From positions 1 to 25,071 of IMG/VR virus record IMGVR_UViG_3300033076_001536: 25,071 nucleotides of DNA; one strand, given 5' to 3'. A program made the position numbers and the translations under genes. Within the stretch, counting starts at the first letter, position 1, and each line of letters opens with the position of its first letter. Shown here one piece after another: positions 83 to 22,668 of the stretch. The DNA comes from a virus. Its lineage: Duplodnaviria > Caudoviricetes. The notes beneath the pieces are model-generated. The model did not search any database, was not told where the DNA came from, and was given only the letters and a program-made list of their open reading frames with translations.

Positions 83-865
83 ATGGCAGACGATTCCAAA
101 GGCAACGCGATCAAGGCTCCTGGCCTCCAGGAGTGGGCGACGTATTATGAAATCTCCCTGCGACAGGCGTTTCGCTGGCAAACCGCCAGTCTCGAAAAAA
201 TGCAGGGGCATCCGCCGTTTCAAGACCCACCAGCAATGATCGCCTGGTGGGGGAGGTGTTTCAAAAATCGCGTCTCCTCCAAAATCACCAAAGCCAACGC
301 CAAATGGGCCACCGGCGCACGTCCATCGAATCAGCCTTCTCAGTCCCCTCCGGACTCATCGGATTCAGCACCCGACGTAACTGCTCCAAAAGAAGCCAAC
401 TTCGACTTCGGCGAGCTCAATACCGATCTGACCACTTTAAACAGCATCTCCGTCGCCCGCATGGCCGTCGCTGATTGTTGGGCCATCTACCAGGACGCCC
501 GGACGCGCGGAGCCCTCGGCGAACTCGACCACCTGCGCCAGAACCTCCAGCGTTCGCAGGAGACTCTCTCCAAGCTCGAATCCCGATCCACCCGCCAGCT
601 CCAAGCCGAAGGAGCCCTCGTCCTGGCCTCCGAAGTCCAGGCCCGCCTGCTCCCGCTCCTCAAAGTCATTCCTCAACAATTCTCCCGCACCATCGAAACC
701 GCCCTCCTCCGGCTCCTCACAGATCAACTCCACATCACACCTGAGACCATCCGCGCCGCCGTCTCCGCCGCCCAATCCGAAGCCTGCACCCACATCACCA
801 ACCACCTCCTGCCCCTCACCACCGACGAAATCAAACTGCTCGCCACCGAGCCCGCGCCCCCATGA
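83..865 (+). CDS. terS: Terminase small subunit (putative)
   Basis: 260 aa; N-terminal HTH-like segment (LQEWATYYEISLRQAFRW); helical C-terminal half; stop overlaps the terL ATG (ATGA at 862-865). Confidence 0.7.
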   Translation: MADDSKGNAIKAPGLQEWATYYEISLRQAFRWQTASLEKMQGHPPFQDPPAMIAWWGRCFKNRVSSKITKANAKWATGARPSNQPSQSPPDSSDSAPDVTAPKEANFDFGELNTDLTTLNSISVARMAVADCWAIYQDARTRGALGELDHLRQNLQRSQETLSKLESRSTRQLQAEGALVLASEVQARLLPLLKVIPQQFSRTIETALLRLLTDQLHITPETIRAAVSAAQSEACTHITNHLLPLTTDEIKLLATEPAPP

Positions 866-2919
866 TTTCTCCCGCCCCCAACAAAGGCGAAACCCTCGTC
901 AACCAATGCCTCGCCGAAGCCTTTCGCCCCCTCAGCACCGAACGCATCGCCGACTGGGCCTACCGCGTCATCCGTTTAAACAACGTCGAAGGCGAATTCA
1001 AAAACCTTCCCTACGACGTCCAACGCACCCCCATCAACACTGACATGTTCGACTGGTGGCAAGACCCCACCAGCAAATATTCCGAATACGTCATCATGAA
1101 AGGCTCCCAGGACGGCCGCACCCTCGGAGCCGCCATCTGCGCCGCCTACAACTTCGCCAACAACCCCGGCAACTTCGGTTATTTCGGCTCCAGCAAAGAA
1201 GAAGCCAACCGAATCACCCGCGCCCGGTTCATGCCCATTTTGCGTCAGGCCGATCCCAGCATCTCCGATGCCATCGACCTCGCAGGCGAAGCTGCCGTCG
1301 TCAAACTCATCAACGGCAACGTCTTCCTCACCCACGGCGGCACCGTGCCCCCCGCCTCCTGGCCACTCCGCGACATTGTCATCGACGAAGCCGCCATCCA
1401 GCCACTCACCGAATTCGGCTCCACCATGGAACTCGCCGCCAAACGCAGCGAGAAACAAAGCGGACGCAAAATCCTCATCTTCTCCAAGCCCGAAATTTGG
1501 CCCAAATACCAAGCCAACCCCCGCAACGGAGACCTCCGTCTCATCAACGGAGAACGCGCCCTTTTCACCGAAAAATGGATGTCCGGCACCCAGGAAGTCC
1601 CCATGGTTCCCTGCCCCCACTGTGGCGGATTCCAAGAGCTCACCGACGAACAATTCCGCGCCCCCGCCCGACTACTCCCCGGCCTCGACCTCCAGGAAGC
1701 CGACATCGATCTCACCGAAATCGAAAACAACACCTGGTATGAGTGCGTCCACTGCGCCCATCCCATCTACGAAAAAGACAAAGCGCAAATGGTCCGCTCC
1801 TACCGACTCGAGCCCGCCCCGCTCGATCCCAAAGAAGCCAAACGCCGAGGCTTCGCCCGCCCCCGCATGGTCGGCTGCGACCCCAAACACCCCGACATCA
1901 CCCGCTACAAACGCCCCCTCCCCGGCGTCAAATCCATCCACACCTCCGACCTTTACAACATCACCACCCCCGAATGTTCCTGGGGTAAAATCCACCGCAA
2001 AAAACTCGCCGCTCAGCGCGATCCCTCCGCGTGGGCCACCTACTGCAAAGACTGCCGGGGCGAGCCCCCCGCCGAGACCACCTACAGCGGAGAACTCACC
2101 GATCGCATCCTCTCCCGGCTCAAAGGAGCGTATAAAAAGCTCGGGCTCATCGACCCCCTCACCGGCGAACTCGGCACCCCACTCCATTCCCTCCCCATCG
2201 ATCCCGAGCGCCTCACCGTCCAGATCGACTACCAGGAAGGCGCCGTCGGCCAGTCCAGCTACTTCCCCTTCACTCTCACCGCCTTCGACGACAAAGACCA
2301 AATCCACGTCGTCGACTACGGCATTCTCAAAACCCTCGAAGACATCGCAGACCTCCTACAGATTGAATTCCAAGGCCCCAGCGGAAAAAAAGGCCGCATC
2401 ACCTTCGGACTCATGGACTCCCAGCACGACACCTCCACCGTCCTGGAATTTTGCCAACGCCCCGGCGTTTACGGCCGCCTCTATCCCTCCGCCGGCGTCA
2501 GTCGAAACCTCGACATCGACCGCCGCGATCTCACATTGAAATCCAAATACGGCGTCCCCTTCTGGGCCCTCAACTACCGTTCATCCTACTGGGAAAATCA
2601 ACTCTACACCTTCGCCCTCAGCAAATGGTGCGAACTCCTCGATCCCAACAACCGCGCGCGCCTCAATGGCATCGCCGCCGCCCGACACGCCCACATCTGC
2701 CCACGCATCTTCCTACCCATCGACACCTGCGATGATTACTACGCCCAAATCTCCAACATGCACGAAGCCCCCGTCTCCGCCAAAGACCCCACCAAGGGAC
2801 TATGCTGGCAAAAGATCCGCAGCTCTGATCCCAACGACTACGGAGACTGCCTCAAGCTGGCCCTCATCCTCCGCCGCTTCTTCCGCGACGGAGAAAACCG
2901 CTCTGCCCTCGCCTCGTGA
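862..2919 (+). CDS. terL: Terminase large subunit, lambda GpA family
   Basis: 685 aa; GpA-type Walker A region YVIMKGSQDGRT; Walker B IVIDEAA; CPHC...CVHC zinc-ribbon; C-terminal nuclease acidic residues (LMDS, NDYGDC). Confidence 0.92.
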   Translation: MISPAPNKGETLVNQCLAEAFRPLSTERIADWAYRVIRLNNVEGEFKNLPYDVQRTPINTDMFDWWQDPTSKYSEYVIMKGSQDGRTLGAAICAAYNFANNPGNFGYFGSSKEEANRITRARFMPILRQADPSISDAIDLAGEAAVVKLINGNVFLTHGGTVPPASWPLRDIVIDEAAIQPLTEFGSTMELAAKRSEKQSGRKILIFSKPEIWPKYQANPRNGDLRLINGERALFTEKWMSGTQEVPMVPCPHCGGFQELTDEQFRAPARLLPGLDLQEADIDLTEIENNTWYECVHCAHPIYEKDKAQMVRSYRLEPAPLDPKEAKRRGFARPRMVGCDPKHPDITRYKRPLPGVKSIHTSDLYNITTPECSWGKIHRKKLAAQRDPSAWATYCKDCRGEPPAETTYSGELTDRILSRLKGAYKKLGLIDPLTGELGTPLHSLPIDPERLTVQIDYQEGAVGQSSYFPFTLTAFDDKDQIHVVDYGILKTLEDIADLLQIEFQGPSGKKGRITFGLMDSQHDTSTVLEFCQRPGVYGRLYPSAGVSRNLDIDRRDLTLKSKYGVPFWALNYRSSYWENQLYTFALSKWCELLDPNNRARLNGIAAARHAHICPRIFLPIDTCDDYYAQISNMHEAPVSAKDPTKGLCWQKIRSSDPNDYGDCLKLALILRRFFRDGENRSALAS

Positions 2920-2949
2920 AATTGACTCTCCTCCCAAAATCAAACATCC

Positions 2950-3276
2950 ATGAATAGGCACGTTATTATTTTCACTAGCAACTGCGCTCTCATCAGCACC
3001 GAAACCTCCGCTGATCCGATCATCATAAAGAGGGAGCCGATGGCTTGGCGACCAGAGCCACAAGGAACGGTCTCCACCAGCGATCCAGGCACCGGCACCT
3101 ATACCGAGCCCTGCTGGCCGGCTTACAACGATACAAATATTGCCGATTTCATTCCCCGCCAACAGCCGAAATTCTCCCCTTCCCACTCCCGTTATCTCGC
3201 GGCAAAAGACCCACACTCCGGCCAGCGCAAAATCCCAAAATTTCGCAAAATTAACCGCCCACACAAAAAGCGTTAA
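2950..3276 (+). CDS. Hypothetical protein, basic C-terminus
   Basis: 108-aa ORF fills the gap after terL; preceded by the TTGAC motif at 2922; less C-biased codons. Confidence 0.5.
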   Translation: MNRHVIIFTSNCALISTETSADPIIIKREPMAWRPEPQGTVSTSDPGTGTYTEPCWPAYNDTNIADFIPRQQPKFSPSHSRYLAAKDPHSGQRKIPKFRKINRPHKKR

Positions 3277-3325
3277 CTCCGCCCCTCTCAACTTTCTCAA
3301 GTCTCACCTCTCACCCATTCCTCCC

Positions 3326-3673
3326 ATGCCCATCCCCATCCCCAGCGACGACGAAATCGACTTCATCATCGAAACCAAACTCATGGACGGAGACGCCTAC
3401 TCCTGCGATCTCCTCAACGCAGAGATCGAAGCCGCCCGCCAAGCCCTCGCCGACGCCAGCGTCACCAGCAGCTCCGCCCTCGGCCACAGCGCCACCGTAG
3501 ACGCCGAGCTCGCCCGGGCCAACCTCAACACCCTCCTCCTCGCCCGCAAAACCTGCCAAGCCCGAGCCGCCGCCGTCGCCGCCGAACTCAGCGAACAAGA
3601 AATCGCCAACGCCCAGCCCTTCGAGGCACCCATCAACCGCTCCTTCAACTTCGCCGCCCGCCGCCTAATGTGA
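3326..3673 (+). CDS. Head-tail joining protein (gpW-like position)
   Basis: Start moved to ATG 3326 (cctcccATG), 115 aa; helix-hairpin-helix pattern (...ASVTSSSALGHSATV...); lies between terL and portal. Confidence 0.6.
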   Translation: MPIPIPSDDEIDFIIETKLMDGDAYSCDLLNAEIEAARQALADASVTSSSALGHSATVDAELARANLNTLLLARKTCQARAAAVAAELSEQEIANAQPFEAPINRSFNFAARRLM

Positions 3674-3757
3674 ACGTCACAACGGAGGCACGCGAATAAT
3701 GGGACACCCGAATTCACCAACCGACTTCGACGCGTTGCCTCCCGTGGCTGGTTCTGG
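3669..3757 (-). mobile_element. attC: attC-type integron recombination site (89 bp)
   Basis: Minus strand: R'' CCAGAAC, 5-nt spacer CAGCC, L'' ACGGGAGG (8 nt, one extra base), CA-A-CGCG (second extra base), 36-nt variable loop, CGCGTG, L' CCTCCGT (7 nt), 6-nt spacer TGTGAC, R' GTTCACA. This is canonical attC spacing with both extrahelical bases. Confidence 0.8.
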
Positions 3758-3952
3758 CCGGGAGTGGATCGTGGAAATTCCATGCCGGATAGTCCACACG
3801 ATGACCGTCCGCGCTGACTCCAGAAAAGAGGCTGAAGCAAAGCTACGCAAACGATCTGAACACATGGACGACTTTACAGCGATCGACCACCAAACCGTCA
3901 GCTTCGGGATCGGACGCGTGATCTGCGAAGACGCAAAACGAAATCGCCAGAA
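3675..3952 (-). mobile_element. Integron-type gene cassette (~278 bp) integrated in the phage head module
   Basis: Bounded by G|TT crossover points on the minus strand; GTTCTGGC (3751-3758) is the exact reverse complement of GCCAGAAC (3946-3953); the segment lacks the C-rich bias of its flanks. Confidence 0.72.
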
Positions 3953-3956
3953 CTAG
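3699..3956 (+). CDS. Small cassette-encoded hypothetical protein
   Basis: 85 aa; GGAGG at 3684-3688, 10 nt before the ATG; core WIVEI...TMTVRADSRKEAEAKL resembles small beta-beta-alpha phage proteins; stop lies just past the cassette boundary. Confidence 0.7.
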   Translation: MGHPNSPTDFDALPPVAGSGREWIVEIPCRIVHTMTVRADSRKEAEAKLRKRSEHMDDFTAIDHQTVSFGIGRVICEDAKRNRQN

Positions 3957-4105
3957 TTGATCACCGACAGATTTGTCGATTATGACGCGTATTTGCGCGT
4001 AAACCAACATTTCACCTCCGATCCCTGACCTCCGATCCCTGACCCCTGACCTCTGCCCCCTGAGGTCACCGCCATGCCCCTGTCATTGACACCGCCCCTG
4101 CGGCA

Positions 4106-5653
4106 ATGACACCGCAGCCCACGTCCACTCTTCCGCCCACTGGCTACCTCCAGACCGCCACCGGCCTCATCATCCCCGCAGGCACCAACGACGTCGCCTT
4201 CTCCCCGCCCTTCGGTTACGCTGGGGCTCCTGGCAACTACACGGCCGCTGTTAAAGATCCCGCCCAGGCCTCCATTTATTTTCCAGAGAGGCGCAGCGTC
4301 TTCGACATCACCCCCGACGACCGGCTCACCATCCTCGACAAAGCCCGCTGGGCCACCCGCAACACTGGCTTGGGCAACCGCATCAACGAAGGCATCGCCG
4401 AAATGGTCGGCGCCCTCGCCCCCAGTCCCACCACCACCGACGAAGAATGGAACCAGCTCGCCAAAGCCGCGTTTGAAGACGTCACCTCCTCCGCACTCAT
4501 CTTCGACCAGGCAGGCGATGAAAACTTCGAGCAACGCCAGCTCACCCTCACCAAGAAGTTAGTCGAAGATGGAGACTGCCTGCTCGCCCTGACGGAAACA
4601 GCCTCCGGACTGCCATCCACCGCCCTTTACGAATCCCCCCAGATCGGCAACCCCAAAGGGAAATCCGCCCGCGACGGATGGCTCGACGGCGTTCAACTCT
4701 CCGGATCCTACCGCCGGCAAGCCTTCGGCATTCTCGATGCCAACCTCTGCCCCACAGACTTCAGCATCTCCGCATTCGACGCCATTTTCTTCGGCGATCC
4801 CAAACCCCACGCCCCCCGCGGCGTCTCCAAGTTCGCCACCTTCGTCAAGCGCCTCATGGACGTCCGCCAGATGGACAACGACCAGCTCGCAGGCATCCAC
4901 GCCGCCAACCTCGTCGGCTTCTACCTCAAAAATAACACCCTCGAAAACGCCAAGGCCAAGGCACTCATGGACGAAGCCGTGTTTAAAACAAAATTCGGCA
5001 ACACCCCCACCGCCGACGGCGACCAGAAATCCTACAAATCCGAAGACATCTTCCGCCACTCCGGCACCATGGCAGACCTCAACATCGGTCAGGAATTCGC
5101 CACCGTCCACGACGAGCGCCGCCACCCCAACACCGCCGAATTCGTCAGCTACTTCATCCGCGACATGGCCTGGGGCACCGGCTTTCCGCCCGAAGTCATC
5201 TGGTTCCTCGGCCAGCTCGCAGGCCCCGGCGTCCGCTTCATGATCAAATCCGGAGAAAAAGCAGCCAAACGCTACCGCCGCATCCTCCGCGAGCGCTACT
5301 GCCAGCGCATCTGGGTCTGGGTCATTTCCAAGCTCGTCAAACTCGGACGCCTCCGACCCTGCAACGACAACCGCTGGTGGAAATGCGAATGGTTAGAGCC
5401 CGAATCCCTCACCATCGACCTCGGCCGCGACATCAAAGCAGGCCTCGAAGAGATCCGCGCCGGAGGCAACACCTACGCCAACTGGTATGGCGAGGTAAAA
5501 CAAGACTGGAAAGAGCAATTCCGCCAAAAAGCCGCAGAACTCAAGGAAGCCGCAAAGCTCGAAAAAGACAACGACCTCCCCCCCGGCTCGCTCCTCGGCC
5601 AAGTCATCATCCAGCTCAACCCCAACAACATCCAACCCGCCCAAGCTGCGTAA
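4106..5653 (+). CDS. Portal protein, lambda family
   Basis: 515 aa; motifs ARWATRN, EDGDCL, DGVQL, PRGVS, W..P..LTIDLGRD; position after terL/gpW. Confidence 0.92.
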   Translation: MTPQPTSTLPPTGYLQTATGLIIPAGTNDVAFSPPFGYAGAPGNYTAAVKDPAQASIYFPERRSVFDITPDDRLTILDKARWATRNTGLGNRINEGIAEMVGALAPSPTTTDEEWNQLAKAAFEDVTSSALIFDQAGDENFEQRQLTLTKKLVEDGDCLLALTETASGLPSTALYESPQIGNPKGKSARDGWLDGVQLSGSYRRQAFGILDANLCPTDFSISAFDAIFFGDPKPHAPRGVSKFATFVKRLMDVRQMDNDQLAGIHAANLVGFYLKNNTLENAKAKALMDEAVFKTKFGNTPTADGDQKSYKSEDIFRHSGTMADLNIGQEFATVHDERRHPNTAEFVSYFIRDMAWGTGFPPEVIWFLGQLAGPGVRFMIKSGEKAAKRYRRILRERYCQRIWVWVISKLVKLGRLRPCNDNRWWKCEWLEPESLTIDLGRDIKAGLEEIRAGGNTYANWYGEVKQDWKEQFRQKAAELKEAAKLEKDNDLPPGSLLGQVIIQLNPNNIQPAQAA

Positions 5654-5655
5654 CC

Positions 5656-5877
5656 ATGAGGGCAAAACTGACCAACACCGAATCCCGCGTCCAGTTTCCC
5701 ATCGGCCTCTGCGCCTGCGGCACCACCACCCGTCACCGGCGCAAGAATGGAGATCCCTGGTGCGTCCCCTGCCAAGTCCGTGCCACCCGCGCCGCAGAAG
5801 AAGCCAAAGGCATCCCATTCGAACCCTTCCCCCTCATGCCCGCCATGCAAGGCCGCCACGAAAACTTCCGCTTCTAA
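5656..5877 (+). CDS. Small Cys-rich (possible Zn-binding) protein
   Basis: 73 aa from ATG 5656, 3 nt after the portal stop; CACG...WCVPC; phage-like codon bias. Confidence 0.55.
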   Translation: MRAKLTNTESRVQFPIGLCACGTTTRHRRKNGDPWCVPCQVRATRAAEEAKGIPFEPFPLMPAMQGRHENFRF

Positions 5878-5926
5878 CCTCACTCCCTTACTCTCCCACT
5901 CCCTAACTCTCTTTTACCCTCCTCCC

Positions 5927-6841
5927 ATGCACTACAACCGCATCCTCAACCTCCTCACCCTCCAGCCCCTCGAACTCCGCGCCGCCGCCAACGGCCAAGG
6001 CATCGGCCCCGAGCATCGCACCTTCATCGAAGCCGTCCACGCCCGCCTCCATGGCCCCGCCGAGCGCGTTTCCCCCAGCGTCCGGGAATATGCCCCCAAA
6101 GACTTCCGCCCCGCCAACATCGCCCCCGGAGGGATCAATGCAGCTCGGCAGAAATCCGGGCTGGATCCCATTTACAGCTACGATGCCGCCACCAACGTCA
6201 TCACGTTAGACATCTGCGGCCCACTCGCTCTCCACGCATCCCTTTTCGAAATGGACTGCATGGGAGTCGTCTCCTACGACCACCTCAACGAAGCCCTCCA
6301 GGAGATTCCCCAGCGTTACCCCAACGCCAAAGCCACCGTCCTCAACATCGACTCCCCCGGCGGTCAGACCCGGGGCAACATGGCCACCGCCTCCTTTGTC
6401 GAGCAGCTCACCGAAGCTATGCCAGTCGTCGCCTACAGTGATTCCATCATGTGCTCCGCCGCCATGAAGATCGCCGCCCCCGCAGACTACATCCTGACCA
6501 GTTCCGATGCTGAAGTCGGCTCCATCGGCACCGTCTTAGCCTTCCTGGACGATACCGAATACCTCCAAAACCTCGGCCTCAAATGGGAAGTCATCGCCAG
6601 CGGAGAACTCAAAGGCATCGGCTACGGACCCCTCACCGAAGTCCAGCGGGACCACCTCCAGTCCCAAGTGGACGCCGCCGCCAACACCTTCAAAGCCCAC
6701 ATGCAGACCCACCGCCCCGGCCTCACCGCCGAAGACATGCGTGGCCAGTCCTGGTCCGCCGCCACCGCACCCGCCGCCCTCCTGGACGCCACCAACTTCC
6801 CAACCCTTGCCCACGCCCAAGCCTTCGCCGCCACCCTCTAA
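5927..6841 (+). CDS. Prohead protease, S49/SppA (ClpP-like) family
   Basis: Start ATG 5927 (cctcccATG), 304 aa; LNIDSPGG, CSAAMKIA, VGSIG and GELK motifs. Confidence 0.9.
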   Translation: MHYNRILNLLTLQPLELRAAANGQGIGPEHRTFIEAVHARLHGPAERVSPSVREYAPKDFRPANIAPGGINAARQKSGLDPIYSYDAATNVITLDICGPLALHASLFEMDCMGVVSYDHLNEALQEIPQRYPNAKATVLNIDSPGGQTRGNMATASFVEQLTEAMPVVAYSDSIMCSAAMKIAAPADYILTSSDAEVGSIGTVLAFLDDTEYLQNLGLKWEVIASGELKGIGYGPLTEVQRDHLQSQVDAAANTFKAHMQTHRPGLTAEDMRGQSWSAATAPAALLDATNFPTLAHAQAFAATL

Positions 6842-6843
6842 AA

Positions 6844-6871
6844 GTGGCGGGGGCATTCTGCCCCCAAGCCC
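6844..6871 (+). repeat. REP-like palindrome, copy 1 of 6
   Basis: GTGGCGGGGGCATTCTGCCCCCAAGCCC, 7-bp stem with 3-nt loop, 3 nt after a stop codon. Confidence 0.85.
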
Positions 6872-7056
6872 CACACCCTTTCCGGCACGTTGTCGGAACC
6901 CCGGAGGGGTCGTTGATACCCCGCTAAACTAATCCTCGGCCCCTCCGGTTAGCCTTTGCAAGCCCCACTTTTCTCACTCTCCCACTCCCTCACTCTCTTT
7001 CCTCCCCACTTGACACCCCTCCCTCATCACATCCGCAAACCACCAACCATCCTACC

Positions 7057-7644
7057 ATGAAGAAAAAAACCTCGTTCCTGTTCCTCCTCGCGCTCCTCTG
7101 CCCCGTCTTTTCCATCACGGCTGACGACGCCCCCGGTTCCCCTGATCCCGCGCCAGATCCAGCGCCCGAGCCAACTCCCGCACCAGCTCCAGAATCCGCC
7201 GACAACCGCAGCGTCGCCGCCAAATTCATCGACCAGCTCAAGTCCAAAGACACCCTTTCCTCCGCCAACGCCAAGCTCAAAACAGACTTGGCTAGTGCCA
7301 ATGCCCGCATCACCACATTGACCGCCGAGAACACCACCCTCACCGGAGCTGTCGAAGCCTCGCAGGATCTGCTCAACCGCCTCGGAGCCGTGGAAAAGGC
7401 CATGGGCCTCACTTCCGGCCTCCTCAGCACCGGCACCACACAGGAAATCGACTCCGCCATCGCTGGCAAAATCGCCTCCGGCGTCATCGACGAACAAGCC
7501 CGCGCCGGAGTCCCCTCCGCCACGCTCCCCGCCGCCGCCCCGTCGGATGTCAACCCACAAGACGCCAAACTCAACGCCCTCACCGGTCTCGATCGCTCCC
7601 AGGCTGCCTTCGCCTCCATGCCCATCTTCAAACGCTCCGCCTAG
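7057..7644 (+). CDS. Probable capsid scaffolding protein
   Basis: 195 aa; Pro-rich linker and coiled coil; lies between protease and capsid; hydrophobic N-terminal leader. Confidence 0.6.
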   Translation: MKKKTSFLFLLALLCPVFSITADDAPGSPDPAPDPAPEPTPAPAPESADNRSVAAKFIDQLKSKDTLSSANAKLKTDLASANARITTLTAENTTLTGAVEASQDLLNRLGAVEKAMGLTSGLLSTGTTQEIDSAIAGKIASGVIDEQARAGVPSATLPAAAPSDVNPQDAKLNALTGLDRSQAAFASMPIFKRSA

Positions 7645-7701
7645 TCCATCCGTCACCACCACCACCCATTAAAATAAAGTTAGTCTAACCAACAAAACAT
7701 C

Positions 7702-8667
7702 ATGGCCCGTCTCACCCTCGCGCAAGTCGCCGCAGTCACCTCCCCAAACATCATGGGGCCGCTCATCGAAGCAAACACCACCTTCGCTCCTGAATGGGGC
7801 GTTGTGCCCGTCAAATCCATTCCCGGCACTAGCTATCAAACGCTCGTCCGCACTGGCCTCCCATCCGTCGCCTTCCAAAACCTCGGCGCAGGCGTCACCG
7901 CCACCAAGAGCCAATTCGCGCTCCGCAAGCACGATATGTTCTTCAAAAAGGCCCGTGTCGAAGCCGTCAAGGAAATCGCCGACGCATGGGATTCCCAGAG
8001 TGGCGTGGGCTCCTACTTCAACGTAGAGGCCAGCGGCATCGTGCGCGCCACCATGCAACTCCTCGGCACCCAAATGTTCTACGGCACCGCCGCAGGCACA
8101 GACAAGGGCTTCCAAGGACTCAAAGCCTTCACCCCATTCGGCGGCTCCTACACGCTGGACGCCACCGGCACCACCGCCTCCACCGCCTCCAGCATTTATC
8201 TGTGCTGGCTCGGACTGGAAGAAGAAGCCATCGCTTTCCTCACTGGAAACAACACCGTCTTCCAACTTCCTCCTCCACGCCTGGAAACCATCAGCGTCAC
8301 CAACGCAGACGGAACAACGGGAAATGCAGACGCCTACACGTCCCAGCTCGATGGCTACAGCGGCCTCCGCATCGGCTCTCCGCAGGCCGTCGTCCGCATC
8401 TGCAACATCACTGCAGAAACAGGCAAGAAAGCCACGGACAACCTCATTGCCCAAGCCCTCGCGCTCTTCCCCATTGGCTACCAACCGAACGCCATTTTCA
8501 TGAGCCGCCGCAGCCAGGAGCAGATCCGCGTCAGCCGCAGCCCCAGCAGCATCACCGTTCTCAACGGTGGAGGCATCTCCCTCTCCGCGCCGCCTCCAAC
8601 GGACTACAACGGCATTCCGTTCGTCATCACCGACTCCATCCTCAACACCGACGCCATCGAATCCTAA
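7702..8667 (+). CDS. Major capsid protein (HK97 fold, BPP-1-like family)
   Basis: 321 aa; M..LTL start, VRTGLPSVAF..G.GV..KS, FQGL, YNGIPFVITDSILNTD; A-rich leader. Confidence 0.88.
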   Translation: MARLTLAQVAAVTSPNIMGPLIEANTTFAPEWGVVPVKSIPGTSYQTLVRTGLPSVAFQNLGAGVTATKSQFALRKHDMFFKKARVEAVKEIADAWDSQSGVGSYFNVEASGIVRATMQLLGTQMFYGTAAGTDKGFQGLKAFTPFGGSYTLDATGTTASTASSIYLCWLGLEEEAIAFLTGNNTVFQLPPPRLETISVTNADGTTGNADAYTSQLDGYSGLRIGSPQAVVRICNITAETGKKATDNLIAQALALFPIGYQPNAIFMSRRSQEQIRVSRSPSSITVLNGGGISLSAPPPTDYNGIPFVITDSILNTDAIES

Positions 8668-8676
8668 CCGCCAAAA

Positions 8677-8703
8677 GTGGCAGGGGCATTCTGCCCATAA
8701 GCC
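8677..8703 (+). repeat. REP-like palindrome, copy 2
   Basis: GTGGCAGGGGCATTCTGCCCATAAGCC, 10 nt after the capsid stop. Confidence 0.8.
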
Positions 8704-8741
8704 AATCACAGCACTAAGCAACACACCCACCCCAACAACCC

Positions 8742-9170
8742 ATGGCCTCTTATCCAAACAATCGCGGACTCAAGTCCGAAGACACCACCAAGTTCAAAGC
8801 CCTGCCCGCCGCCGCTGCCACCAACTACAGTGACAGCATCGACCTCGGCACGGATCCCGCCACCCACGGCGTCCTCCTGGAAGGCAAGCTGGAGATCTAT
8901 CTCCCCGCCACTCCTTCCCTCGTGGATGCGAAGACCGTCACCCTCACGCTGCAAGACAGCGCGGATGACTCCACCTTCACCGATGTTACCGGCATCGCCA
9001 CCGTCGTCGCCACGGGCGCCAGCTCCGCCGGAGCCGCCGCCATCACGCGGGAAGTCCCCATCCCCTCCACCCTCCGTCGTTACGTCCGCCTCAAACAGGC
9101 TGTCCTAACTGCTGGCGGAGACAACACCGCCATCTCCACCCGACTCGCCTTCCTTTACGGAGCCTGTTAG
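8742..9170 (+). CDS. Capsid cement/decoration protein (Bbp16-like)
   Basis: 142 aa beta-rich; SDSIDLG, TLQDSADDSTF and RRYVRL motifs; directly after the capsid gene. Confidence 0.72.
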   Translation: MASYPNNRGLKSEDTTKFKALPAAAATNYSDSIDLGTDPATHGVLLEGKLEIYLPATPSLVDAKTVTLTLQDSADDSTFTDVTGIATVVATGASSAGAAAITREVPIPSTLRRYVRLKQAVLTAGGDNTAISTRLAFLYGAC

Positions 9171-9196
9171 GCAAACCCTTTGCTGCCCTGCAAACC

Positions 9197-9262
9197 GCCG
9201 GGGCTGGAAACGTGCCTTCTTCGTCGTTTCCCACGCCCTCCAGCCCCGGCATTTCCCTTTTT
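9197..9262 (+). terminator. Stem-loop, possible terminator or attenuator
   Basis: Perfect 12-bp stem GCCGGGGCTGGA/TCCAGCCCCGGC (9197-9250), large loop, followed by ATTTCCCTTTTT. Confidence 0.45.
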
Positions 9263-9270
9263 CAATTCAC

Positions 9271-9807
9271 ATGCTCACCTTCCTCTACCTCTTCGCCTTC
9301 GCCTCCGCTAACGCCCTGGAAAAACCCGTCCTGCTCTACGCCGGATACGAGCCCGGAGATCAATTCGCCGCCTACAAGCAGGCCAGCCTTTCACCTTGGG
9401 ACCATTTTGTGTTCGGCACTTCTGCTGGATCTGAAGTCCGCGCCCCGCATTCCTTCACCCCGCAAGAACGCGCAGAGTTTAGTGAATGCGTCATCGCTGC
9501 TGCAGAAGCCGCCGCCCGTGCCGCCGCCACCGAAGACACGGAAGAACTGCTCAGTATCACCGAACGCGCCTACACTGCCTACTGCGAAGCTGTAGGCGGT
9601 AAAGCATTCAACGGTGATCCTCTCCCGTCCTGGAAAGAATTTGCCGCGGATCCCGCCAAACAACTCCAAGCCAACGCCTGGGTCCAAGCCCTCGCCGCCG
9701 CCACCGACCAACCCGCCGTTCCTTTGCCCGAACCCGATCCCGCAAAAGAAACCCCGCCCGTCCTCACCCTCCCACCCAACGGAGGCCCAGCCAAGAAGGC
9801 CAAATAA
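9271..9807 (+). CDS. Hypothetical head-region protein
   Basis: 178 aa; C-biased codons; Pro/Lys-rich tail. Confidence 0.7.
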   Translation: MLTFLYLFAFASANALEKPVLLYAGYEPGDQFAAYKQASLSPWDHFVFGTSAGSEVRAPHSFTPQERAEFSECVIAAAEAAARAAATEDTEELLSITERAYTAYCEAVGGKAFNGDPLPSWKEFAADPAKQLQANAWVQALAAATDQPAVPLPEPDPAKETPPVLTLPPNGGPAKKAK

Positions 9808-9841
9808 ACAAGTTGCTAGTTCCGTTCGTTTCATGCTGCCC

Positions 9842-9884
9842 GCCCCTGTCTTGGCCTGACCACCGAGGCAGGGGCTTTTTTCTT
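9842..9884 (+). terminator. Rho-independent terminator
   Basis: GCCCCTGTCTTGG...CCGAGGCAGGGGC followed by TTTTTTCTT. Confidence 0.8.
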
Positions 9885-9885
9885 A

Positions 9886-9913
9886 GTGGCGGCGGCATTC
9901 TGCCCCCAAGCCC
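9886..9913 (+). repeat. REP-like palindrome, copy 3
   Basis: GTGGCGGCGGCATTCTGCCCCCAAGCCC. Confidence 0.8.
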
Positions 9914-9980
9914 AGCACCCGCCCCGCCCTCCGGCCTCCTCACTTTCTCACTCTCTGACTCCATCACTCTCTAATCAGCC

Positions 9981-10373
9981 ATGTCCTTCGCCGCCCTCAC
10001 CGCCCGCCGTCACGCCTCCATTGCCCGCCGTTTCGCGTCTAATGCCGCCGGAGAGCTTCTGAAGGTATTCTTCCCCACCACGCCAGGCGCGCGCGCCACA
10101 GAGTTCCCTGACGCCGTCACGGCCATGCAGGGACAGACCAACAAAGCGGACAAAGACGTCTCCCATCTCCTCGACCAAAAGAAGTCCACCCACACCATTT
10201 CCGTCATCACCGCAGAGTTGCCAGCCGCCTATCGGCGCGGAGATCGGGACTCCATCCCCAAGCAACAAATCCTCAAGCTCGGCCACACCATCGAAACCGC
10301 AGTCTCCTACAAAGTCACCTCCTCCAGCTCCGCCGCCGGCATCACCCAGATCGAATTCGACTCCAACACCTAG
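9981..10373 (+). CDS. Putative head-closure/adaptor protein
   Basis: 130 aa, beta-rich C-terminal half; synteny only. Confidence 0.5.
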   Translation: MSFAALTARRHASIARRFASNAAGELLKVFFPTTPGARATEFPDAVTAMQGQTNKADKDVSHLLDQKKSTHTISVITAELPAAYRRGDRDSIPKQQILKLGHTIETAVSYKVTSSSSAAGITQIEFDSNT

Positions 10374-21330: not shown

Positions 21331-22668
21331 ATGCGCTTCAATCCCCTCACCGGAAAAATCACTTACGGACCCGCCCCCGGCTCCAGCCGCCCGGCGCCGC
21401 GCTTCGAGCAAATTTCCGGCAAGGTGGATTTTAGCCGCCGTCAAAGCTCCGGCCCCGTTCCTTCGCTGGATCTAAACTTCGCCCTCGGTTCCTTCGCTGC
21501 CGCCCGCGGACCACTGCCAACCTTCAGCCGTGCCTCTGCGGCAACGTATGTCGGATCCGACGGATTGATCGCCTCCGCGACAACGAACACGCCCCGGATT
21601 GATTATGATCCTGTGAATTTGGAGTGCCGTGGGTTGCTGATGGAGCCTGCTGCAACGAATGAGTTTTCAGATTCAAATTTGGCTAGTGGTTGGGCTCCTT
21701 CTGGAGTAACGAATTCTAGTGCTGGAACCTCCCCGGCAGGTTTCACGGCTGTAAAATTGACTGAGTCAGCAACAACTCAGGCGCATTTCATTTACTCCAC
21801 GGAAATCACTACTGGCAGTGGATCTCGGCGTGTGTTTTCGATTTACGCAAAATCTGGAGAGCGCAGTGTGATTGGTGTAGCATTTTCGAATGCAGGCGAT
21901 CGTGGGATTTTCGTCGATTTGGATACCGGGGAAAAAGTGGGCGATGTGGTAACAGCGCCTGATTCGTTCGATATTCAAAACGCTGGGAATGGTTGGTGGC
22001 GCATCTCAATTTGTCAGGATGGATCAAACAACGGTTACCCGTTTTTGCTGCTTTCATCCACAGCATCCGCAAGTGATCGAATCAGTTATGCAGGGGATGG
22101 AACCAGCGGGCTTTATGTTTACGGAGCTCAATGTGAAGCGTCCGCGCTCACTTCGTTAATTGTAACGTCAGGCTCATCCGCCACACGGGCGGCGGATGTC
22201 TGCTCCATCAGTGGATCGGATTTCAGCGGTTTTTACAACGCCGCGGCTGGCACAATCGTAATCGACGCAACAATTCTAGGAGACTTGCCATCGGGTTATC
22301 CGCAGCAACTGGCCATCGGGGCAACTTCTGGGAGTGATGCTTTCCTTTTGTTCAGAGGTGTAGCGGAGACTAATTTCTTTAGCCGAGTCGTGTCGTCGAG
22401 TTCTGTAGTGGCTCAGGTGACATCAACGGAATCTTTTGATAGGAGGATTCGCGGGATTTCTTACAATGCTGCTGGAGTGTCATTCGCCATCAATGGGGCT
22501 GTCACCACGGAAGGGGCGGTGGCTTTACCTGTGGGGGTTACTGAAATGTCAATCGGCTCCAGTCTACCCGCTGGCACTGGAGCAGTCGATAGCCTCATAA
22601 TTCAGAGGATTCGTTACTACCAAACGCGCATCTCGGATGCTCAACTCCTAGCCCTAACCACTCCATGA
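21331..22668 (+). CDS. Head-spike/fibre protein with carbohydrate-binding-like domains
   Basis: 445 aa; PSLDLNF, TFSRAS.ATY..DG, PRIDYDP...GLL.E...TN, GNGWWRIS, TRAAD, IRYY..R.SDAQL.ALT motifs. Confidence 0.78.
   Translation: MRFNPLTGKITYGPAPGSSRPAPRFEQISGKVDFSRRQSSGPVPSLDLNFALGSFAAARGPLPTFSRASAATYVGSDGLIASATTNTPRIDYDPVNLECRGLLMEPAATNEFSDSNLASGWAPSGVTNSSAGTSPAGFTAVKLTESATTQAHFIYSTEITTGSGSRRVFSIYAKSGERSVIGVAFSNAGDRGIFVDLDTGEKVGDVVTAPDSFDIQNAGNGWWRISICQDGSNNGYPFLLLSSTASASDRISYAGDGTSGLYVYGAQCEASALTSLIVTSGSSATRAADVCSISGSDFSGFYNAAAGTIVIDATILGDLPSGYPQQLAIGATSGSDAFLLFRGVAETNFFSRVVSSSSVVAQVTSTESFDRRIRGISYNAAGVSFAINGAVTTEGAVALPVGVTEMSIGSSLPAGTGAVDSLIIQRIRYYQTRISDAQLLALTTP

Follow-up and report, generated by a model that had tools for sequence, protein, structure and literature searches.

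A probable reversed-gene integron cassette at an active-looking swap site in the head operon of a likely Verrucomicrobiota phage

We consider it quite probable that a 278-bp unit lying between a gene in the head-completion (gpW) position and the portal gene of a phage, which likely infects Verrucomicrobiota, is a reversed-gene integron cassette at a swap site, that IntI likely exchanges cassettes there, and that the cassette gene would be read from the head-operon transcript by means of start signals carried in its own attC site. This is a variant of the integron cassette system and not new chemistry.

Results

Genomic context of the unit

The unit was found in a linear record of 25,071 nt, analysed here over its whole length (the window), which is ∼41% complete and in which the terminase, portal, S49 protease and capsid genes are all on the plus strand. 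The genes that surround the unit are as follows.

862..2919, plus strand: terminase large subunit (GpA type; PF05876, E 7e-21; phrog_15)
3326..3673, plus strand: gene of 115 aa in the head-completion (gpW) position, with a stop codon (3671-3673) that falls inside the R' box of the attC site
4106..5653, plus strand: lambda-type portal (PF05136, E 5e-22)

The gpW name of the 115-aa gene comes from gene order alone: no Pfam or PHROG match was found, and comparison with the gene in the same position of another contig (L013) gave 25% over 77 aa (E 0.14). The portal has eleven homologues at 33-69% identity, of which just one carries a taxon name, that of a Verrucomicrobiales bin. Together with membership of the attC site in a Verrucomicrobiota family (see below), this portal homologue points to Verrucomicrobiota as the likely host.

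Anatomy of the attC site

A first-pass annotation, made from the sequence alone, had described an integron-type attC site here, and every box that it claimed is present. The elements of the site are listed below, with strands given in the attC sense.

3669..3758, minus strand (top strand): attC site, from sequence, a shuffle control and a host-trained covariance model
3669..3675, minus strand: R' box; the predicted crossover at 3674/3675 is the left junction
3682..3688, minus strand: L' box of 7 nt, with a 6-nt spacer to R'; on the plus strand it contains GGAGG (3684-3688)
3735/3736, within an L'' region at 3731..3745: second extrahelical base, T on the bottom strand
3738..3745, minus strand: L'' box of 8 nt with one extra base at about 3742, C on the bottom strand
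3751..3758, minus strand: R'' box (7-nt box 3757-3751), with a 5-nt spacer to L''
3946..3953, minus strand: cassette core site; the predicted crossover at 3952/3953 is the right junction

The complementarity claimed between 3946-3953 and 3751-3758 proved to be an exact reverse complement (8/8). The unit was also said to lack the C bias of its surroundings, and the GC skew of 3675-3952 is indeed -0.04 versus -0.37 and -0.38 in flanks of equal length; a skew at least as high was also reached by 28 of 496 sliding windows of cassette size.

A geometric scan of the window returned 10 candidates, among which the attC site alone has a 7/7 L-box match plus six inner pairs; in 20 Markov-shuffled versions of the sequence, no site combined 7/7 L boxes with more than three inner pairs. 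The annotation had called for covariance scoring, and a purpose-built model trained on 44 bacterial host sites (nearly all from Verrucomicrobiota, with normal gene direction and outside the search pattern) matched 3669-3757 with 47.8 bits (E 5.8e-10). This is the sole significant match in the window, where the next best has an E of 2, and an Rfam scan of the window gave two hits (E 0.8-0.95), neither of them at the attC site. Covariation counts of the training sites are partly circular, since the sites were picked by pairing rules, and they are not relied on. Free folding is modest, with z scores of -1.5 (plus, or bottom, strand) and -2.2; the L stem forms, while minimum-energy folds leave the R boxes unpaired. 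Across the attC family, the L boxes pair best with the fifth base looped out, at 0.92 for 65 viral pattern hits and 0.91 for 121 genome hits versus 0.56 and 0.54 with shuffled partners, in a test where the pattern had fixed only the G/C content of two L-box positions. One of the 12 first viral pattern hits (L004) was dropped as a chance match as its L boxes do not pair.

Both extrahelical bases are present on the R''-L'' arm of the phage site. Such bases set attC polarity (Bouvier 2009, PMC2727003), which makes the minus strand the top strand here and gives the plus strand the layout of the recombining bottom strand. R-box complementarity cannot give polarity because the same boxes pair in both readings; the assignment is drawn from the extrahelical bases and from two features described below, the geometry of intI and the ends of shared units. 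By these sequence criteria, 3669-3758 is a real attC site and a member of the Verrucomicrobiota host attC family.

A reversed gene that starts in the hairpin

The cassette and its gene occupy the following positions.

3675..3952, no strand: cassette from AAC to AAC, 278 bp, with the attC body first and the gene after it
3699..3956, plus strand: 85-aa ORF, reversed relative to the attC site

The first 20 codons of this ORF are attC sequence, its ATG (3699) lies in the hairpin loop, and the GGAGG of the L' box is a predicted Shine-Dalgarno sequence 10 nt ahead of the ATG. The stop codon is supplied by the right flank, beyond the right-hand AAC. In the canonical cassette layout the gene is on the top strand and ends at or before R''; here it is on the bottom strand and starts in the attC site. 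The first-pass account of an ordinary IntI-type cassette insertion thus holds for the attC unit but not for its gene, which is reversed and begins in the hairpin, nor for the history of the site, which is a swap point rather than a single old insertion. The unit contains only one minus-strand ORF (62 aa, 3677-3865), which runs through the attC site and has no family match, and the coding model favours the plus-strand ORF over it.

The predicted mRNA fold buries the GGAGG (z -0.85, not significant). If the fold hides this motif, translational coupling of the 85-aa gene to the upstream stop codon, 10 nt before the GGAGG, is plausible. The cargo itself scored 12-13 bits (E 0.1-0.19) against PF14207 (DpnD/PcfM-like), for which the gathering cut-off is 25, and its likeness to DpnD/PcfM-like small proteins by atlas score (0.87-0.89) is a lead only. 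No homologue of the ORF was found in viral contigs, it matched only itself among 5.8 billion clusters of near length, and blastn of the cassette gave no match in 50,697 phage records. A single-sequence AlphaFold model of the protein has a mean pLDDT of 45 and was not used. A late-expressed accessory factor would be our guess, to which we give little weight.

Junction variants before the portal gene

Contigs of five public sequencing runs were aligned to the region. The whole stretch is contained in one run (X1), from which this DNA may come. In a second run (X2), contigs match the left flank without a difference over 229 and 221 nt and the portal gene at ∼97-98% identity, with none inside the cassette, and other contigs of X2 and a third run (X3) match the flanks at ∼97-100%. 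At the left junction, two X2 contigs track the window to position 3676 and then differ both from the window and from each other, and one X3 contig tracks it to 3678 (131/133 identical) before continuing into other sequence. At the right junction, unrelated sequence gives way to that of the window at 3948 (32-nt match) and 3950 (30-nt match) in two further X2 contigs. Counting the window, there are four left and three right variants, all at most 3 nt from the AAC. Two of the left-hand loose ends can be read alone, and both are shaped like the arms of other attC sites, in two studies. The variant contigs are 141-257 nt long with a depth of 2-4x, the right-hand matches of 30 and 32 nt are at the limit of the tool, and left and right variants are unlinked. 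Neither an empty site nor an excised circle was seen in the contigs of the five runs, which show presence and not absence.

The first-pass annotation had staked its reading on related phages having their boundaries at the AAC/GTT points, and in the relatives compared at the gpW-portal spacer other DNA does begin at the same two AAC points. The attC-bounded 278-bp unit that it proposed is supported by the boxes, the covariance score and the junction variants alike. Ends at crossover points, which mark a mobile cassette, were found here through these variants; the cassette itself was not found elsewhere. From the sequence data, the attC cassette appears to sit at an active-looking swap site in the head operon.

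A search for portal relatives returned no loci with a single protein, and one viral and six metagenome loci with an alignment. Three of these, distant relatives with 39-42% portal identity, extend as far as the upstream gene; their gap between that gene and the portal gene is about -1 to 50 bp versus 432 bp here and contains no attC site, so the attC site is young in this phage lineage.

Gene direction across the attC family

Patterns derived from the attC site of the window, which are blind to gene direction, retrieved 12, 59 and 16 viral stretches (72 distinct contigs), as well as 119 genome stretches; nearly all of the 80 genome stretches listed are from Verrucomicrobiota. A codon model was used to call the gene behind each distinct attC site. 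Among 178 viral sites, 134 were reversed, 12 normal and 32 uncalled, versus 32 reversed, 149 normal and 55 uncalled among 236 bacterial genome sites, where the sites are not phylogenetically independent and the search patterns come from the attC of the window itself. No p-value is given for this contrast because the sites are related to each other. By locus majority, reversed to normal is 52:2 of 62 viral loci and 14:69 of 107 genome loci. The direction calls are backed by family matches, to Pfam for 11 of 24 normal host ORFs and to PHROG for a share of the reversed viral ORFs (below). Prophages or mis-binned phage contigs may account for some of the reversed loci among the genomes. As judged from these calls, the reversed layout is a class feature of most viral sites in this attC family, unlike most host sites.

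PHROG families were matched by 32 of 131 reversed viral ORFs: 12 DNA methyltransferases, three Mom-like, three PAPS reductase-like and two tRNA-guanine transglycosylase-like proteins, three others and nine of unknown function. Much of the class cargo that can be recognised is DNA-modifying (the 12 methyltransferases and three Mom-like proteins), which points to counter-defence.

The published Shewanella phage integron and TJE1, which served as further checks on the calls, and M16-3 were all called as normal in direction. So was Virus Rctr41k, which has an IntI-like gene, and reversal is therefore no rule for all phages. In Rctr41k (KX853513.1, L216; positions 4680-10100), the gene annotated as xerD is IntI-like and is followed by six attC-like hits with normal genes; Qi 2023 (PMC9892861) does not name this virus in its main text. 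The longest array seen is on a viral contig of 5168 bp (L143), with twelve co-oriented attC sites in 4.7 kb, 10 of them called as reversed. Six small contigs labelled Desulfobacterium sp. N47 (L032, L035, L038, L075, L093 and L096) carry attC sites of the Verrucomicrobiota family, through either a shared family or a binning mix.

Unit ends and start signals within the class

Two units, of 823 bp (89.6% identical) and 764 bp (93.6%), are common to unrelated phage loci with different neighbours. Each starts at the AAC of the attC site before its gene and ends at the next AAC; several other shared phage segments have an AAC at one end only. The GTT box matched the next AAC at 4/4 positions in 61 of 89 viral pairs, versus 10 of 89 for its own AAC. 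Of 93 reversed genes, 53 stop at or within the next attC site. An in-frame ATG lies within the attC of 69/134 reversed viral sites versus 19/149 normal host sites in a looser test, and GAGG in an L box together with an ATG 22-40 nt past the AAC is found in 21/134 and 0/149, respectively. In a small alignment, the ATG column is common to all six phage sites and missing from two comparison loops, and the loop of the window's attC retains a host-type motif. We infer that host-type attC sites have been reshaped into what would be translation-start modules.

Integrase source

No integrase is encoded in the window, as the annotation had said: none was found in the 25 kb of this ∼41% complete linear record, and a complete integron, with intI beside the array, is not present in this contig. 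In the DNA retrieved for the 72 viral contigs, eight contigs carry an IntI-like gene (six distinct proteins). Of seven array-adjacent integrases, three pass the TIGR02249 cut-off and the other four score 194-260 bits. A further candidate (L022) was rejected as an ordinary integrase. In the eight reversed loci mapped, intI is on the bottom-layout strand behind the array, as in eight of nine host loci (L081 differs), and in reversed arrays it starts ∼40-75 nt after the last AAC. G005, a complete phage of 45.9 kb, encodes terminase, portal, protease and capsid proteins as well as IntI and has seven attC hits; in G025, an IntI is accompanied by six attC hits and by matches to capsid and terminase. 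RecT-like proteins are encoded by both complete IntI phages.

Twenty array-bearing records were searched whole, eight of which are at least 90% complete, and one of these eight has IntI, which suggests that supply of IntI in trans is common in the class. Such whole-record searches can miss genes: one search gave one integrase in G005 and another gave a second. The phage enzymes do not come together in one supported clade of a 22-row IntI tree, so no single origin is claimed; the groups obtained were five rows at 93/86, three rows at 100/100 that include the binned contig L046, and one long branch. L046 (6-4486, binned as Verrucomicrobiaceae) carries five reversed cassettes and then an IntI (341 bits) that groups with two viral IntIs, and is probably a prophage or phage contig.

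The right flank of the cassette

The flank beyond the right junction is a further candidate element.

3951..4009, no strand: possible attI-like or secondary site; not attC (no model match)

The intI-proximal junctions of both phage and host loci share a loose AAC-spacer-ATT motif, of which the right flank fits only a relaxed form, chosen post hoc and present at 1.3-2.2% of AAC sites. A 57-bp part of the flank (3953-4009) recurs with six differences in an unrelated 2.1-kb X2 contig (depth 17), where no AAC precedes it and a likely gene start follows. This segment may be an attI-like site or a phage regulatory motif. A pattern built from the right flank had no viral matches.

Discussion

A model for exchange

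In the mechanism that we propose, the coding strand would fold as the recombining bottom strand and IntI would cut it at AA|C. Recombination between the left and right junctions would excise a circle with a fully paired attC site, and another circle could then enter at the same AAC point. As the unit brings its own start, it would be translatable at any landing point in a one-directional phage operon, probably with translation coupled to the upstream stop codon. The enzyme could be supplied by the host or by a co-infecting phage, or be encoded in the missing 59% of the genome, and the first two are somewhat likelier given that IntI was found in only one of eight near-complete array-bearing records. 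More speculatively, if genes are co-directional with replication, their reversal would place the bottom strands on the lagging template, which would speed up shuffling (a possibility that draws on PMC5371416). At the level of the class, we lean towards a picture in which Verrucomicrobiota phages run their own integron system, with a pool of reversed accessory genes of phage type (for DNA-modifying enzymes and small proteins of unknown function), attC sites serving as start modules, IntI encoded by some phages and borrowed by others, and swap sites even in the head operon.

It would be an unlikely alternative that the hairpins are of integron attC descent but that the units are now swapped by another phage tyrosine recombinase or by RecT-like annealing of the R and L arms. 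Seven of the eight near-complete array-bearing records searched whole have no IntI, RecT-like proteins occur in both complete IntI phages, and several shared segments have an AAC on one side only, all of which would suit such a route. However, the variants share just 1-3 nt beyond the left AAC and 1-3 nt before the right AAC, an overlap too short for exchange by homology; both extrahelical bases and the 6/5 spacers are retained, and reversed arrays have true IntI genes 40-75 nt behind their last AAC.

A single event, in which an ordinary host cassette landed once, backwards, at a secondary GWT (attG) site and brought a merely incidental plus-strand ORF, is largely refuted by the four left and three right variants found there. 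IntI inserts at GWT sites genome-wide and lone attC sites are common, as described by Loot et al. (10.1101/2022.09.11.507474), the loop of the window's attC retains its host-type motif, and the three distant portal relatives have no attC at this place. Nevertheless, the 62-aa minus-strand ORF has no family match and is disfavoured by the coding model, and the site has the GAGG-plus-ATG form seen in 21/134 viral and 0/149 normal host sites, so that we rate a single landing as very improbable. A chance hairpin, or assembly branching that mimics variants, is scarcely credible: the z scores of -1.5 and -2.2 and the short contigs of low depth (2-4x) would allow it, but it is opposed by an E of 5.8e-10 from a model trained on other sequences, by the shuffle control, by the two left loose ends that read as other attC arms in two studies, and by the presence of the whole stretch within one contig of run X1, possibly the source of this DNA.

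Relation to known systems

Exchange of reversed cassettes by IntI, the reading that we prefer, has several relatives among described systems. Qi, Rajabal, Ghaly, Tetu and Gillings (2023, PMC9892861) surveyed 10,705 phage genomes and found 17 CALINs, three complete integrons and a single integrase on its own; IntI1 recombined five of six phage attC sites tested, and one phage had attC sites in divergent directions. The present site resembles those phage CALINs in that attC sites occur in phage DNA, mostly without an integrase, and DNA methyltransferase cargo is common to both (12/131 viral ORFs here). In contrast to the loci studied here, the main text of that paper mentions no reversed genes, in-attC start codons or exchange of cassettes among near-identical phages. 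The SALINs and attG sites of Loot et al. likewise involve one attC site and one ORF with no integrase near and crossover at a GWT triplet. A single attC site with a gene, and no intI or other attC nearby, is what the window contains, but this match to a SALIN is formal only as the relatives show reuse of the site: as described in that preprint, SALINs are scattered normal cassettes in bacterial genomes, whereas in this phage different units reuse a single site, and the gene has the opposite direction.

Sedentary chromosomal integrons in Verrucomicrobiota belong to the same attC family, and in 8/9 of their intI loci mapped the gene is placed as in the phages with respect to the attC strand, but their cassette genes are mostly normal in direction (149 versus 32) and lack the GAGG-plus-ATG form. 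In inverted-integrase integrons, as set out by Cury et al. (10.1101/030866), intI and the cassette genes likewise point the same way; there, intI is flipped relative to attC, whereas in the phage loci the intI/attC geometry is usual, the genes are flipped and each attC site moves with the gene downstream of it. Short ORFs inside attC sites that aid translation, as presented in PMC8876359, are related but different. A literature search covering few subscription journals did not return the reversed-gene attC layout.

Strand choice in integrons has been explained, in the account given in PMC2727003, as placing genes in the right direction behind the Pc promoter. The phages keep the attC/intI geometry but reverse the genes and place start signals within the hairpin, and a phage operon would in this way be served by unchanged chemistry. 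If this is true, it would provide a site-specific route to the mosaicism of phage accessory genes, with turnover visible in natural populations. Reversed phage cassettes would also be a defined test system for how cassettes are made, and software that looks for cassettes may assign the wrong gene to a phage attC site.

Other features of the window

A promoter scan of 2900-4200 gave two minus-strand sites and none at the right flank of the cassette. Between the right junction and the portal start, 4014-4062 consists of pyrimidine-rich short tandem repeats with 14-nt spacing. The ∼400 bp between the terminase gene and the gpW-position gene (2920-3325) have a slightly lower GC content, an ORF of 78-108 aa without a family match and no attC model match; the equivalent gap is 15-30 bp in two distant relatives and ∼470 bp in a third. 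Finally, 21331-22668 is a tail-protein gene (phrog_5939) in which the 21600-22500 part has a lower GC content and a GC skew reversed relative to the rest of the contig, and this part is likely a recently acquired module.
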